A stretch of 64,000 nucleotides of DNA from Escherichia phage vB_EcoM_WFbE185. The position numbers and the translations under genes are program-made. Location: sequence record MK373778.1. One strand, 5' to 3'. Shown one piece after another: positions 2,700 to 63,991 of this stretch. The notes beneath the pieces are model-generated. The model saw nothing but the letters and a program-made list of their open reading frames with translations, was not told where the DNA came from and searched no databases. Positions within the stretch are counted from its first letter, which is position 1. Every line of letters begins with the position of its first letter.

Positions 2700-3983
2700 A
2701 TGAGTAAAATCCAAAAATTATTGCGTGAATCTACAACGTCTACTAGCAACTCAATTGGTCGCCCAAATCTCGTTGCTTTGACTCGCGCTACGACTAAATT
2801 AATATATTCTGACATTGTAGCAACACAAAGAACTAATCAACCTGTTGCTGCTTTTTATGGTATCAAATATCTTAACCCAGATAACGAATTCACATTTAAA
2901 ACCGGTGCTACTTATGCTGGCGAAGTTGGATATGTAGACCGAGAAAAAATTACCGAGCTCACAGAAGAATCAAAAGTCACACTAAATAAAGGCGATTTTT
3001 TCAAATATAATAATATCGTTTATAAAGTATTAGAAGATACACCGTTTGCAGATATTCAGGAAAGTGATCTAGAATTAGCTCTTCAGATTGCGGTCGTTCA
3101 TTTAAAGGTACGGTTGTTTTCAGATGCAGCGGTAACAAGCAAATTTGAAAGCTCTGGTAGCGAAATTTCTGATGCAAGATTCCAGATTAATAAATGGCAA
3201 ACCGCTGTTAAATCTCGTAAACTTAAAACTGGCCTAACGGTTGAATTAGCGCAAGATTTGGAAGCGAATGGATTTGATGCCCCTAACTTCTTAGAAGATT
3301 TACTTGCTACTGAAATGGCTGATGAAATTAATAAAGATATTCTTCAGTCTTTAATTACTGTATCGAAACGTTATAAAGTTACTGGAATTACTGACACCGG
3401 ATTTATTGACTTGAGCTATGCGTCTGCTCCAGAAGCAGGTCGTTCATTATATCGAATGGTGTGTGAAATGGTATCACACATTCAAAAAGAGTCAACTTAT
3501 ACCGCAACGTTTTGCGTAGCTTCAGCTCGTGCAGCCGCTATTCTTGCTGCTTCAGGTTGGTTAAAACATAAGCCGGAAGATGATAAGTATCTTTCACAAA
3601 ATGCTTATGGATTCTTGGCAAATGGATTACCTCTTTACTGCGATACTAACAGCCCGTTAGATTATGTTATTGTGGGTGTTGTAGAAAATATCGGCGAAAA
3701 AGAAATTGTAGGGTCCATCTTTTATGCTCCATACACTGAAGGAGTAGATTTAGATGACCCGGAACATGTTGGTGCATTTAAAGTTGTAGTTGATCCAGAA
3801 AGCTTGCAACCGTCTATCGGATTATTGGTTAGATATGCTTTATCAGCAAATCCTTACACAGTAGCAAAAGACGAAAAAGAAGCGAGAATAATTGATGGTG
3901 GGGACATGGATAAAATGGCAGGACGTTCAGACTTGTCTGTTTTACTCGGTGTTAAATTGCCTAAAATTATTATAGATGAATAA
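2700..3983 (+). CDS. 24: head vertex protein gp24
   Basis: 427 aa; position after gp23; late promoter TATAAATA 27 nt upstream; AAGGA RBS. Confidence 0.9.
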   Translation: MSKIQKLLRESTTSTSNSIGRPNLVALTRATTKLIYSDIVATQRTNQPVAAFYGIKYLNPDNEFTFKTGATYAGEVGYVDREKITELTEESKVTLNKGDFFKYNNIVYKVLEDTPFADIQESDLELALQIAVVHLKVRLFSDAAVTSKFESSGSEISDARFQINKWQTAVKSRKLKTGLTVELAQDLEANGFDAPNFLEDLLATEMADEINKDILQSLITVSKRYKVTGITDTGFIDLSYASAPEAGRSLYRMVCEMVSHIQKESTYTATFCVASARAAAILAASGWLKHKPEDDKYLSQNAYGFLANGLPLYCDTNSPLDYVIVGVVENIGEKEIVGSIFYAPYTEGVDLDDPEHVGAFKVVVDPESLQPSIGLLVRYALSANPYTVAKDEKEARIIDGGDMDKMAGRSDLSVLLGVKLPKIIIDE

Positions 3984-60717: not shown

Positions 60718-60863
60718 TACTCGCCTTTTAACACGTTAAGAAGAGCTAAGACCGCTAAGGTACCTTGTGATACGGCCTGTTGAAATACTGTTGTTTCGCC
60801 TGTAACTAAAGTGTTAACGAATAAAAACGACCAACACAGCAATGCAATAATCCATGCTATCAT
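60717..60863 (-). CDS. small hydrophobic membrane peptide, 48 aa
   Basis: Manual translation MIAWIIALLCWSFLFVNTLVTGETTVFQQAVSQGTLAVLALLNVLKGE; GAGGT RBS 8 nt upstream. Confidence 0.35.
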   Translation of the reverse strand: MIAWIIALLCWSFLFVNTLVTGETTVFQQAVSQGTLAVLALLNVLKGE

Positions 60864-60887
60864 TTTAATTACCTCAAAAATAAATTA

Positions 60888-60907
60888 AAGGCCCAACTTA
60901 ATAGGCC
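60888..60907 (-). terminator. terminator after ndd
   Basis: AGGCC-N10-GGCCU hairpin followed by UUAAUUUAUUUUUG on the minus strand. Confidence 0.45.
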
Positions 60908-60915
60908 TATATAAA

Positions 60916-61362
60916 TTAGTAACTCTGCAGAATGAATTTGAAATTATCAGCCAGAAGACGGTTCATTTCAGTGAGTGTTTGATATTCTGATGTATGGTTG
61001 CGAGTGAATGCCAGAGCCAATTGACCTTTACCATAACCAGTGGTCAGTGGTTTCATGTTCTTAGCTGCAACAAAGATTACGTCATATTCAATATTGTTAG
61101 TGCCCATGGTACGGGCTAGTTGCGAACGGCCTTGACGAATGTGAGAAAGAATTGCATCCAACCCTTGTTTAGAACGTTGACGTCCTACAAAGAATCGAGC
61201 TGCTACTTGTCGCCAATCAGATGAACCTTTAACGAAGAAGTAAAAACCTTCACGAGAACGAAACTCTTTAGAAACTTCAGAACCGTATTCGCCATTACAA
61301 ACTACTGCAACAACTTCACCGCCAACTGCCAGAAGGTCTTTACGAGTTAAATATTTGGACAT
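60916..61362 (-). CDS. ndd: nucleoid disruption protein Ndd
   Basis: 148 aa; [13 protein letters not shown]...[14 protein letters not shown]...[21 protein letters not shown]...[10 protein letters not shown] matches T4 Ndd. Confidence 0.85.
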
Positions 61363-61438: not shown

Positions 61439-61639
61439 TTATTCGGCCATATCAGAACGTTCAAAAAGCTCTTCAACAGTTAAACATTCAGTGTCATCTT
61501 CAATAAAGAATCGAGTCCAACACGTTGGGGCGATACAGTTATGAGTTTGTCCGGCGATAGAAGCTACACGAATAAGCTGCTGACCGTTATTCAGAACAAA
61601 TTTTTCACCAATTTCAACATCTTTAAAAAGCTTAGCCAT
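61439..61639 (-). CDS. hypothetical protein (ndd.x-like)
   Basis: 66-aa ORF with GAGGAA RBS and early promoter at 61668-61697. Confidence 0.45.
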   Translation of the reverse strand: MAKLFKDVEIGEKFVLNNGQQLIRVASIAGQTHNCIAPTCWTRFFIEDDTECLTVEELFERSDMAE

Positions 61640-61667
61640 TTTGTGTTCCTCATGTTTCAGTAGGACT

Positions 61668-61697
61668 ACTATACCATAATCCTACCTTGTTGTAAAC
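61668..61697 (-). promoter_or_regulatory. early promoter (GTTTAC-N18-TATAGT) with -10 inside inverted repeat TAGGA/TCCTA
   Basis: Drives ORF 61439-61639; similar to the 62180-62209 cassette. Confidence 0.45.
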
Positions 61698-61889
61698 AAT
61701 TAAATTACATTAAAATATGTTAAAGCCAACCATGTTCCAGTGAACGAACATGCGATGTAAAACCACGCATCACAAATTGTTCTTAGTACAATAAGAAGTG
61801 CATTTTTCATAAGTACCTCAACACAATTGAAAATATTATACAAATCATTGGGATACTAAGCAACCATATTCCTATCCACATTTTAGAGC

Positions 61890-62153
61890 TCATATCTCAA
61901 CTTCCGCGAGTTCCATATATCCTTTGTTGATAACCTCTTTAAGGTCTTTAGAAAGAATAACACCAAAATGGTCGTTCATATGTCCATTAACTAAACGAGT
62001 TATTTCGGCTTCAGATGACATATAAGGCACGTCTGAGTCCCAATGAGATAGTCCCAAATGGGTATAAATCATCCCTTCGTCATCTGCAGTGTTGTACATT
62101 GAAACAAATTCGCCTGTTACTTTATGTTTTGCGTAGAAAAATTTAAATTTCAT
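61890..62153 (-). CDS. hypothetical protein (ndd.x-like)
   Basis: 87-aa ORF with early promoter at 62180-62209. Confidence 0.45.
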   Translation of the reverse strand: MKFKFFYAKHKVTGEFVSMYNTADDEGMIYTHLGLSHWDSDVPYMSSEAEITRLVNGHMNDHFGVILSKDLKEVINKGYMELAEVEI

Positions 62154-62179
62154 GATGTTATCCTCTTTTAGATAGGACT

Positions 62180-62209
62180 ACTATATCATAGTCCTACTTA
62201 GTTGTAAAC
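62180..62209 (-). promoter_or_regulatory. early promoter (GTTTAC-N18-TATAGT) with -10 inside inverted repeat TAGGACT/AGTCCTA
   Basis: Drives ORF 61890-62153; lies just downstream of the denB stop. Confidence 0.45.
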
Positions 62210-62221
62210 ACTTTTGTGAAA

Positions 62222-62779
62222 TTAAAGATGAAGATACCACCCGTTGTAGTTGCTCTTGCGGACGATTTTCTTTAGGTCTTCATGGTCTCCCACGAACTTT
62301 ATAGAATAAGAGAAGACGTCAGGTGAGGTTTCTTTGACATCTAATATAATAATGCAATCTGCGACTCGATGGTTCAAGAAGGGCCCTATATTGATTCCAT
62401 TACCACCCGGATAATCACCACTGTATCCTGTGGTAACCGAAATCCATTTCGAATCCATCTGATGGGTCTTTACTTCTACGCGTAGACCACAGTACTTAGG
62501 ATGAGCTAAAACGTCCCATGCATACGTGTACGGGTCTTCTACGTCTTCATTACCTTTATTAACATATCCGTCTAGCCAATTTGCTACTACATACTCTGCA
62601 AAGACTGCAACCTTACAACGTCGAACAACGTCTTCTTTTATTTGACCTGGATCTTGTTTCAACGAGTACCGAGCAGTATCAGCGATCTTAACCTTCATTT
62701 CGCTAGTCAAAAACTCATTCGTCAGGATAAATGTCGGAAGACTCTTCAGCCTCAACAGCCCCAAGTTCGTCTTTACCAT
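62222..62779 (-). CDS. denB: endonuclease IV (DenB)-like protein
   Basis: Start ATG MVKTNLG with GAGGT RBS gives 185 aa, the T4 DenB length; position between ndd and rIIB; no sequence confirmation possible here. Confidence 0.65.
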   Translation of the reverse strand: MVKTNLGLLRLKSLPTFILTNEFLTSEMKVKIADTARYSLKQDPGQIKEDVVRRCKVAVFAEYVVANWLDGYVNKGNEDVEDPYTYAWDVLAHPKYCGLRVEVKTHQMDSKWISVTTGYSGDYPGGNGINIGPFLNHRVADCIIILDVKETSPDVFSYSIKFVGDHEDLKKIVRKSNYNGWYLHL

Positions 62780-63002
62780 AGATACCTCTGATGTGTAGTT
62801 CGCCAAAATAAATGCGGTCACCTTCTTCAAGATATTCTGCATCTACAGGCGGAATTTCAATAACAACTTCGTCGCATTCTAACCAGCCGTAGTGTGCATC
62901 GCCAGGATGTTTTACCAATTTAGCACAATAAACTGATTTACACTTATGATGACCACGAAGATTAGCAATTTTGGATTCTGATACGTCAAATGGATGAATC
63001 AT
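62715..63002 (-). CDS. hypothetical Cys/His-containing protein, 95 aa, overlapping denB by 65 nt
   Basis: ATG start after the rIIB terminator; acidic C-terminus; no equivalent recalled between T4 rIIB and denB. Confidence 0.45.
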   Translation of the reverse strand: MIHPFDVSESKIANLRGHHKCKSVYCAKLVKHPGDAHYGWLECDEVVIEIPPVDAEYLEEGDRIYFGELHIRGIYGKDELGAVEAEESSDIYPDE

Positions 63003-63022
63003 AATTACCCCTAAAGAAAAAA

Positions 63023-63038
63023 GGGGACCGAAGTCCCC
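63023..63038 (-). terminator. terminator after rIIB
   Basis: GGGGAC-UUCG-GUCCCC followed by U6 on the minus strand. Confidence 0.6.
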
Positions 63039-63043
63039 AATTA

Positions 63044-63991
63044 TTATTCTGCAAACAATTCAGTAACGTCTGAAATTACTTCATAACGACATGTACGCAT
63101 CTTAGCATCACCATAGTCAACCGGGATGGATACAACATCACGTGGATGAACTTTAACTTTCACAACTTTATCTGAGCTTGAACCAAAGTGGCGAATATAA
63201 GATTTAGCACAAACATGGAGACCGCGAGAACAGGTTTGAGTATCATCGTCGTTAACTCGAGTACGAGGCATTGAAACAACTTTACCTGGGGAGTTATCAA
63301 ATGTACCACTATAGCAGTCTAAATAGTCCTTACGAACTACTTTCCACGCATAGAAATGTCCATCTTCAGTGATTTCAATATCGTTTGCAACCAAGAAGTC
63401 GAATAAACGTTGTACAGCTTTTTCGCTTGGGTTTTCTAACAGGTTTTCAAGGAATGGCAGATAGAATTTAAAGTCTTCACCTTTTTCCATGGAATCAATA
63501 ATACGGTTAACCAGCCCTGAACGAATCTCTATACCTTGATAAAATAAACTACCACCTTCAATAGTAACATTACCATCAACAAACTTAGTAATAGCTTTCT
63601 TGATGTTAATAAGTTCGACAGCTTTACTAAGGTTTCCTGCGACCAGATTAGCTTTAATTTCTTCAAAATTTGCATGGCTTGATGGAGTCGCATTGTATGC
63701 TACGCGTCCTTCAATAATTGAAATAAATTTAGATGACGCGTTCCATACGATTTCAGGACGATGGCCGCCGATAATAGGTTCATCATTTTCTGGAACTTCT
63801 TCGATTACATAAGAGGCATCGTTTGCTTCAGGGACAACGCCTTCTGCTTTAAAATTCTTAACAATCTTACGAAGAGTATCTGTTGAAATGTCGAAGTAAT
63901 CGGCAATTTCTTTACGAGTCCATTTGCCTGATTCAACCAGGCCGTAAGCTTCTAACTGTTCTTCTTGGGACAAGCATTTGATATTGTACAT
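63044..63991 (-). CDS. rIIB: rIIB membrane-associated lysis-inhibition / rex-exclusion protein
   Basis: 315 aa; MYNIKCL...GGSLFYQGIEIRSGLV...DFLVANDIEITEDGHFYAWKVVRKDYLD matches T4 rIIB. Confidence 0.9.
   Translation of the reverse strand: MYNIKCLSQEEQLEAYGLVESGKWTRKEIADYFDISTDTLRKIVKNFKAEGVVPEANDASYVIEEVPENDEPIIGGHRPEIVWNASSKFISIIEGRVAYNATPSSHANFEEIKANLVAGNLSKAVELINIKKAITKFVDGNVTIEGGSLFYQGIEIRSGLVNRIIDSMEKGEDFKFYLPFLENLLENPSEKAVQRLFDFLVANDIEITEDGHFYAWKVVRKDYLDCYSGTFDNSPGKVVSMPRTRVNDDDTQTCSRGLHVCAKSYIRHFGSSSDKVVKVKVHPRDVVSIPVDYGDAKMRTCRYEVISDVTELFAE

Follow-up and report, generated by a model that had tools for sequence, protein, structure and literature searches.

A probable early accessory gene of T-even-type phages, of family DUF7418, whose end overlaps the start of denB out of frame

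Long out-of-frame overlaps between genes (overprinting) occur in compact phage genomes, the D/E pair of phiX174 and the coat and lysis genes of MS2 being examples. The locus examined here, between rIIB and denB (the gene of endonuclease IV, DenB) of a T-even-like phage, resembles these in that two frames are read, one of them dominates the constraint, and the overprinted product is of low complexity or disordered. It is unlike phiX174 D/E and MS2 in that only 65 nt are shared, these being the tail of one gene and the N-terminus of the other; and, unlike nested overprinted genes, neither of the two appears to have been born de novo inside its partner. Phage T4 offers a second comparison in its ATGA and TAATG coupling junctions, which have in common with the present locus that both genes lie on the same strand, that packing is tight, and that the downstream ribosome-binding site falls within the upstream gene. 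The difference is one of length: overlaps of 1-8 nt are annotated among neighbouring T4 genes, against 65 nt here, which makes termination-reinitiation coupling unlikely and bears out the original prediction's remark that the overlap is unusually long.

The closest relatives of the upstream gene are its homologues in PhAPEC2, RB69 and RB32, which have the same size and the same position ahead of denB, in PhAPEC2 with the same 65-nt overlap as well. T4 denB.1 (NP_049888.1, 64 aa) likewise lies between rIIB and denB and comes after a UUCG hairpin; its sequence is unrelated, its product helical, and it is absent from the DNA analysed here. Phages that possess both genes (fFiEco06, EcWhh-1, kv_tblp8) have denB.1 upstream of the other.

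The window, a stretch of 64,000 nucleotides from Escherichia phage vB_EcoM_WFbE185 (MK373778.1), carries on the minus strand of its last 4 kb, in order, rIIB, a 95-aa ORF, denB, small ORFs, ndd, ac and gene 52 (Table 1). In the ORF listing of the window the 95-aa frame runs from an ATG to a TGA; the denB open frame extends over 62222-62842 on the same strand, with its ATG at 62779-62777, in the +1 frame relative to the ORF. The terminator-like hairpin behind rIIB is directly followed by a U-run (63022-63017) and stands directly upstream of the ORF; equivalent UUCG-loop hairpins precede homologues of the ORF in other genera, and these homologues have GAGG where the window has its AGGGG Shine-Dalgarno sequence. 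The stretch between rIIB and the ORF, like the 3' portion of rIIB, yielded no promoter of the sigma-70 type or with a MotA box, which suggests that transcription reads through from upstream. A 1-kb query around the locus matches 156 phage genomes at 80-99.7% identity, among them PhAPEC2, O157 typing phages 3 and 6, ST0 and SHSML-52-1: these are T-even phages of the RB69-like (Mosigvirus) type.

Table 1. Features of the rIIB-denB region (positions in the 64,000-nt window)
Feature	Position	Strand	Remarks
rIIB	63044-63991	-	315 aa; stop at 63044; upstream of the 95-aa ORF
Terminator-like hairpin of rIIB, GGGGAC-UUCG-GUCCCC	63023-63038	-	From terminator scan and centroid fold
Shine-Dalgarno sequence of the DUF7418 gene, AGGGG	63008-63012	-	5 nt before the ATG; read from the sequence
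DUF7418 (RB69ORF272c-family) gene	62715-63002	-	95 aa; acidic, pI 4.7, net charge -12
Predicted folded beta-rich core of the DUF7418 protein	62781-63002	-	Residues 1-74, ending ...GELHIRGI; not shared with denB
denB Shine-Dalgarno sequence, GAGGT	62784-62788	-	Embedded in I-R-G codons of the DUF7418 gene
Dual-coding segment	62715-62779	-	65 nt; DenB residues 1-21 and the first two bases of codon 22
denB (endonuclease IV)	62222-62779	-	185 aa; full-length identity to T4 DenB 72%
Internal ATG (DenB Met28)	62696-62698	-	denB start (158 aa) in several public annotations

Is the 95-aa ORF a gene? Its product matches Pfam family DUF7418 (PF24193) with a score of 125.5 bits where the cut-off is 27 (E 1.3e-36), residues 1-94 corresponding to positions 1-99 of the 101 in the profile, and phrog_2237 (PHROG 2237) with E 1.4e-34, the same residues corresponding to positions 1-104 of 106; an NCBIfam search with it gave no match. 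Family members go by the names RB69ORF272c in RB69, RB32ORF268c in RB32 and RB14, and YP_009056845.1 in PhAPEC2, and more than 150 near-identical phages annotate the ORF as a hypothetical protein (RB69ORF272c-like). A sequencing frameshift in the window is excluded by the 146 phage records in which the protein is 95-99% identical across all 95 aa. By tblastn the gene is present in 679 phage records, the hosts of which include Escherichia, Klebsiella, Shigella, Enterobacter, Serratia and Yersinia. When 1.84 billion representative proteins were searched exhaustively by HMM, only 11 clusters matched, so that the family appears to be confined to T-even-like phages. (One of the 11, P0013, of 5,745 aa, was rejected as a member: its match is a spurious one of the repetitive YD/RHS-like kind.) Across genera the core of the gene, the part that does not overlap denB, gives NG86 dN/dS ratios of 0.05-0.43 with dS saturated, and by this measure is under purifying selection. 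The ORF that was originally pointed out as starting with ATG right after the rIIB terminator is indeed there, and its Pfam match marks it as real; it is probably a genuine protein-coding gene, an early accessory gene of T-even-type phages in family DUF7418 / PHROG 2237, with conservation arguing for its translation. The gene is already catalogued, and the copy in the window is an ordinary member of its family, with nothing material to set it apart. No paper came up in the literature under the names DUF7418, RB32ORF268c or RB69ORF272c.

Why should a gene so widely distributed have escaped attention? The history of the T4 lineage may provide the answer. In reference T4 the rIIB-denB interval contains, besides denB.1, an unannotated 37-codon ORF, MIYMNIGDSDIKESLNAENESWVTETISDSDIYPIEQ, that comes after a second UUCG hairpin. 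Comparison with fFiEco06, which carries an intact 109-aa DUF7418 homologue, identifies this ORF as an in-frame remnant of the DUF7418 gene that has suffered an internal deletion of about 213 nt; the deletion of the T4 lineage lies between the short A-rich repeats TAAAAGA and TAAAAAGGA. Among 487 Tequatrovirus records that match the intact gene region, 232 span 80% or more of that region (RB14, RB32 and T6 are in this group and, like fFiEco06, have the intact gene), and the remainder, T4, T2, RB18 and RB6 among them, match it only in part. The gene is accordingly dispensable, since T4 and T2 carry the internal deletion, as do about half of the sampled Tequatrovirus records. The original prediction named no T4 gene at this position, which is explained by the absence of the gene from the classic model phages T4 and T2. 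This is right to the extent that the intact copy is deleted in T4, and wrong to the extent that T4 has the unrelated denB.1 and the 37-codon remnant in its place. Deletion from T4 and T2 may also explain why the DUF7418 gene was never studied.

The remnants differ in how they end. They are in frame in T4, RB18, G50 and T2 and shifted to the third frame in FL08; the remnant of fPS-65 has been reduced to four codons, with its stop at the denB Shine-Dalgarno sequence, and that of EC.W14-2 ends in TAATG on the denB start, so that these two have collapsed to short junctions of the kind seen elsewhere in T4. The frame of the remnants was considered as evidence for coupling and is not decisive: T4, RB18, G50 and T2 have stayed in frame, but FL08, fPS-65 and EC.W14-2 differ. 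Production of a DUF7418-DenB fusion by frameshifting was also considered, and is unlikely: in the T4 lineage a TAA sits directly upstream of the denB ATG, in the denB frame.

The position of the gene is conserved: rIIB, an optional denB.1, the DUF7418 gene, denB. Of the 25 loci with an intact copy that were examined, across genera, 24 have it directly ahead of denB, the sole exception being Serratia phage 4S, in which one ORF is inserted between the two. Judging by this synteny, the gene may be functionally linked to DenB, with the qualification that T4 DenB works without an intact copy of it. One can go further and suppose that the DUF7418 protein is a dedicated partner or modulator of DenB, for instance a stoichiometric inhibitor or a chaperone of this toxic ssDNA endonuclease, or a factor that hides its activity from DenB-sensing defences of the retron Eco2 kind, and that the overlap serves to enforce co-expression. 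The constancy of the neighbourhood would fit this supposition, as would the placement of the denB Shine-Dalgarno sequence and AUG inside the most conserved motif of the DUF7418 gene, the small size and acidity of the DUF7418 protein, and the properties of DenB itself, which kills E. coli cells (PMC1635256) and sets off retron Eco2 (PMC12916289). A dedicated partnership is nevertheless unlikely: an active DenB is retained in T4, in T2 and in about half of the Tequatrovirus records despite loss of the gene, the Acinetobacter phages have DenB without DUF7418 (in phage Apostate denB follows rIIB directly), and in Serratia phage 4S the two genes have come apart.

All discussion of an overlap presupposes that denB starts where we place it, and the databases do not speak with one voice on this matter, their DenB gene calls ranging over 158, 172, 177, 180 and 185 aa. 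DenB is annotated with 185 aa in PhAPEC2, T4, RB18, T2 and phiR1-RT, and with 158 aa, and hence without an overlap, in JK45 (NC_054940.1), Mizar (PV714129.1) and fFiEco06; other upstream starts that still overlap the DUF7418 gene have been chosen for kv_tblp8 (200 aa) and Pet-CM3-4 (177 aa). If the start were the internal Met, at 62698, then the two genes would merely be adjacent, with a 16-nt spacer between them, and there would be no dual coding. The three 158-aa annotations and the variability of the calls speak for such a start, and the comparison of 22 loci, drawn from five or more named genera of T-even-like phages, speaks against it. The Met of the 185-aa form is an invariant column of the alignment, kept in all 22 (DenB having 185 aa in most), and is mostly preceded by a recognisable Shine-Dalgarno sequence (AGAGG, AAGGA, GAAGG or GGTGG); in 10 of the 22 loci the Met28 column has another residue (D, A, N, S or L), and no Shine-Dalgarno sequence stands ahead of it.

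The 27 residues that a start at Met28 would discard bear on the question too. They are conserved: F17 never varies in an alignment of 20 DenB sequences, and L11 and L24 hardly do. They are also confidently structured in the AF2 model of DenB, with a helix at residues 6-12 and a strand at 17-20, and the pLDDT of 92-94 over residues 11-30 is the highest in the protein. Matches to DenB in tblastn begin at residue 1-2, and this is so even in Acinetobacter phages, which do not have the small gene. The biochemically characterised enzyme is likewise the 185-aa form: recombinant T4 Endo IV beginning MQKTNPG is active (PMC1635256), and the mutations that allow escape from retron Eco2, G71R, G180E and W181*, are numbered on 185-aa DenB (PMC12916289). 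With so much against it, the internal start is quite improbable. The 185-aa start, with its GAGGT site, is the best-supported one, as the original prediction had it, and conservation points to its product as having the native N-terminus. Taken together, the alignment column, the conserved N-terminus, the model and the characterised enzyme argue that the 65-nt out-of-frame overlap is genuine and a case of real dual coding. Since the Acinetobacter T4-like phages possess the DenB N-terminus in the absence of the small gene, the comparison indicates that this N-terminus is older than the overlap.

The overlap itself, 65 nt long in the group to which the window belongs and 68 nt in most other lineages, appears to be ancient, at least five named genera having it; PhAPEC2 (NC_024794.1) is already annotated with a 185-aa DenB that overlaps an "RB69ORF272c-like" CDS by 65 nt. 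In the frame of the DUF7418 gene the shared segment takes in all but the first base of codon Y75, then codons 76-95 and the stop, so that the tail of the DUF7418 protein is read from 62 coding nucleotides that also encode DenB residues 1-21. Across the start of the segment, the codons AUC AGA GGU AUC UAU GGU, with which the motif GELHIRGIYG ends, hold the denB Shine-Dalgarno sequence (GAGG) and, one frame over, the AUG. (A hairpin pairing the denB Shine-Dalgarno sequence with the AUG can be drawn; it is weak, with z = -1.4, follows from the presence of the His-Ile codons and does not occur in the T4 lineage.)

Which of the two frames has the upper hand? In denB alone, variability at DenB codon positions 1, 2 and 3 is 0.29, 0.25 and 0.56; in the overlap it is 0.38, 0.355 and 0.43. 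In the stretch that codes for DUF7418 only, position 3 of the DUF7418 codons is the most variable (0.53); in the overlap the same base serves as DUF7418 position 3 and DenB position 2, and there it is the least variable (0.355). Translated in the DenB frame, the overlap has an amino-acid identity of 0.54; the corresponding figures are 0.44 for the DUF7418 frame and 0.39 for the unused control frame. Seven close relatives show five substitutions in the overlap, three of them synonymous for DenB and non-synonymous for DUF7418, one the reverse, and one non-synonymous in both. Codon-position variability, frame identities and the split of substitutions together indicate that the DenB frame dominates the overlap and carries most of its selective constraint; purifying selection on this frame is also seen in the invariance of the start and of F17 and the near-invariance of L11, along with the identity of 0.54. 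The DUF7418 tail, with an identity slightly above that of the control frame, is variable (and truncated in one lineage), is acidic in every lineage and is predicted to be disordered. It bears the marks of the other frame: a recurring "DIYP" in the tail mirrors the conserved P-T-F of DenB, and the TGA that stops the DUF7418 gene is created by the conserved N-x-(D/E)-(L/F) codons of DenB.

What kind of protein is it that ends in this way? The AF2 model, computed from a 10-sequence alignment, has a beta-rich core, with a mean pLDDT of 77 and a pTM of 0.63; pLDDT is 77-90 over residues 11-80, 70 over residues 1-10 and below 50 in the last 15. According to the model, the first 75 residues or so fold into the core and the remaining 20 or so form a disordered acidic tail. 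Acidity is a property of the DUF7418 proteins of all lineages (pI 4.4-5.0, net charge -9 to -13, of which the tail alone has -3 to -8), and the motifs LRGxH, VYCxKLVKHPGD and GELHIRGIYG are invariant in close relatives. A Foldseek search of BFVD retrieved four DUF7418-type proteins with E <= 4e-5 and TM of 0.59-0.80, three of them named DUF7418 and the top one unnamed, and nothing significant beyond proteins of this type; a search of the PDB with the DUF7418 model gave nothing at E < 2 and matched no solved structure.

The product was originally described by its cysteine and histidine content. The residues are there (3 Cys and 6 His), and C26, H32, H37 and C43 are invariant among close relatives, all of which might suggest a small nucleic-acid-binding protein with a zinc-ribbon-like site. 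The emphasis proves to have been an over-reading: distant members have A in place of C26, vary at H32 and H37, in one case have A in place of C43, and keep only the G-x-H19 motif and, mostly, C43 and H70. Conservation of this kind does not indicate a metal-binding site for the family; the product has no match to a zinc-finger family in the Pfam search, and the model no fold match to zinc ribbons of the PDB. A zinc-binding protein is therefore a very improbable identification.

As for the suggestion that the ORF is either a paralogue that has diverged from denB or the 5' portion of a longer, frameshifted denB, it drew on the out-of-frame overlap and on a motif supposedly shared by the two products, which turns out to be CAKLVKH in one and CGLRVEVKTH in the other, loosely alike and different in pattern, and it may be set aside as having next to no probability: BLASTP between the products finds nothing better than E = 19, T4 DenB 1-185 aligns gaplessly at 72% identity to the denB ORF alone rather than across both, phrog_1360 likewise matches the denB ORF only, the 95-aa ORF has Pfam and PHROG families of its own with a predicted fold common only to that family, and hundreds of genomes, sequenced independently, show both genes intact in this arrangement.

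How, then, might two genes interlocked in this manner be expressed? Both would be read from the same transcript, either one reading through from upstream or an upstream early one. Every ribosome translating the DUF7418 gene would then have to cross the denB initiation site, and would stop 62 nt beyond it. This distance makes termination-reinitiation unlikely, and the strong Shine-Dalgarno sequence of denB argues for independent initiation: DenB would still initiate on a site of its own. Passage of ribosomes over that site could nevertheless modulate initiation of the toxic DenB in cis, whether because the site is kept from folding or because it is briefly occluded. That translation of the DUF7418 gene modulates DenB initiation, in one direction or the other, is a proposition to which we would give an even chance. 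The protein itself could be a non-essential accessory factor of host takeover or of counter-defence, by analogy with its neighbours rIIB, DenB and Ndd; this is our best guess as to its role. A bolder proposal is that the overlap is a control device and not simply a product of compaction: how much DenB is made, or when, would depend on translation of the DUF7418 gene, and the acidic protein would in addition bind or buffer DenB or blunt DenB-sensing defences such as retron Eco2. We regard this combination as unlikely; if true, it would account for the constant attachment of the gene to denB in different genera and for its loss by in-place deletion only.

For the annotation of these phages the consequence is practical: the 185-aa DenB start and the 65-nt overlap are to be preferred, many deposited T-even genomes having DenB truncated to 158 aa so that the two genes do not overlap. 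The corrected denB start and the recognition of the deletion remnant of T4 and T2 come as by-products. What the locus presents is an accessory gene that is widespread, with its 679 phage records, yet dispensable, and that is interlocked with the gene of a nuclease, DenB, which triggers retron Eco2.

The 185-aa start of DenB, which lies within the end of the DUF7418 gene (the 95-aa reading frame between rIIB and denB), is conserved and is used in the annotations of PhAPEC2, T4 and others. The deposited genomes of JK45, Mizar and fFiEco06 carry a 158-aa DenB instead, begun at an internal Met (window 62696-62698) that is not conserved; these shorter calls were apparently made to avoid overlap with the DUF7418 gene.

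The T4 lineage retains deletion remnants of the DUF7418 gene (loci L003 and L022-L027): in T4, T2, RB18 and G50 an in-frame deletion has left an unannotated remnant of 37-39 codons, and the overlap with the denB start is kept. The remnant has collapsed further in other Tequatrovirus variants: in fPS-65 a 4-codon ORF is left, its stop at the denB Shine-Dalgarno sequence; in EC.W14-2 it terminates at a TAATG junction; and in FL08 it has moved into the third frame. In Serratia phage 4S (locus L030, 1501-2903), an 86-aa DUF7418 homologue is followed by an overlapping, inserted 94-aa hydrophobic ORF, the Shine-Dalgarno sequence and ATG of which once more lie inside the DUF7418 gene's end, and only then by a 233-aa distant DenB-like ORF (HMM E 4e-9). 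One candidate homologue was rejected: P0013, a repetitive, YD/RHS-like metagenomic protein of 5,745 aa, matches the DUF7418 profile (E 7e-20) through 7 short repeated stretches, a match judged to be a repeat or compositional artefact.

T4, Dhakavirus and certain Klebsiella phages carry denB.1 between rIIB and the DUF7418 gene; in the window it is absent from the corresponding interval (63003-63043). The stp gene also appears to be missing from the window, since the ac-ndd interval (60863-60916) is just 52 nt. A 54-nt module occurs in two copies that are 81% identical; on the minus strand it reads as a putative T4-early-promoter-like site (TTTACA-17 nt-TATAGT), inside which is the inverted repeat TAGGACTA...TAGTCCTA.

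Locations of the 54-nt module copies and of the T4 remnant
Feature	Location	Strand	Remarks
54-nt module copy	window 62173-62226	read on -	adjoins denB stop; upstream of 87-aa ORF 61890-62153 (-)
54-nt module copy	window 61661-61714	read on -	upstream of 66-aa ORF 61439-61639 (-)
T4 remnant of DUF7418 gene	L003 (T4 locus) 3094-3207	-	unannotated

Immediately 5' of the DUF7418 gene's Shine-Dalgarno sequence, in several genera, stands a UUCG-tetraloop stem-loop with a U-run (noted upstream of the start in the window, in fFiEco06 and in the homologous loci L008, L009, L015 and L018). Its stems differ in sequence (GGGGAC, GCCC, GGGCC, GGAGCC), so it is the structure of the hairpin that is conserved.
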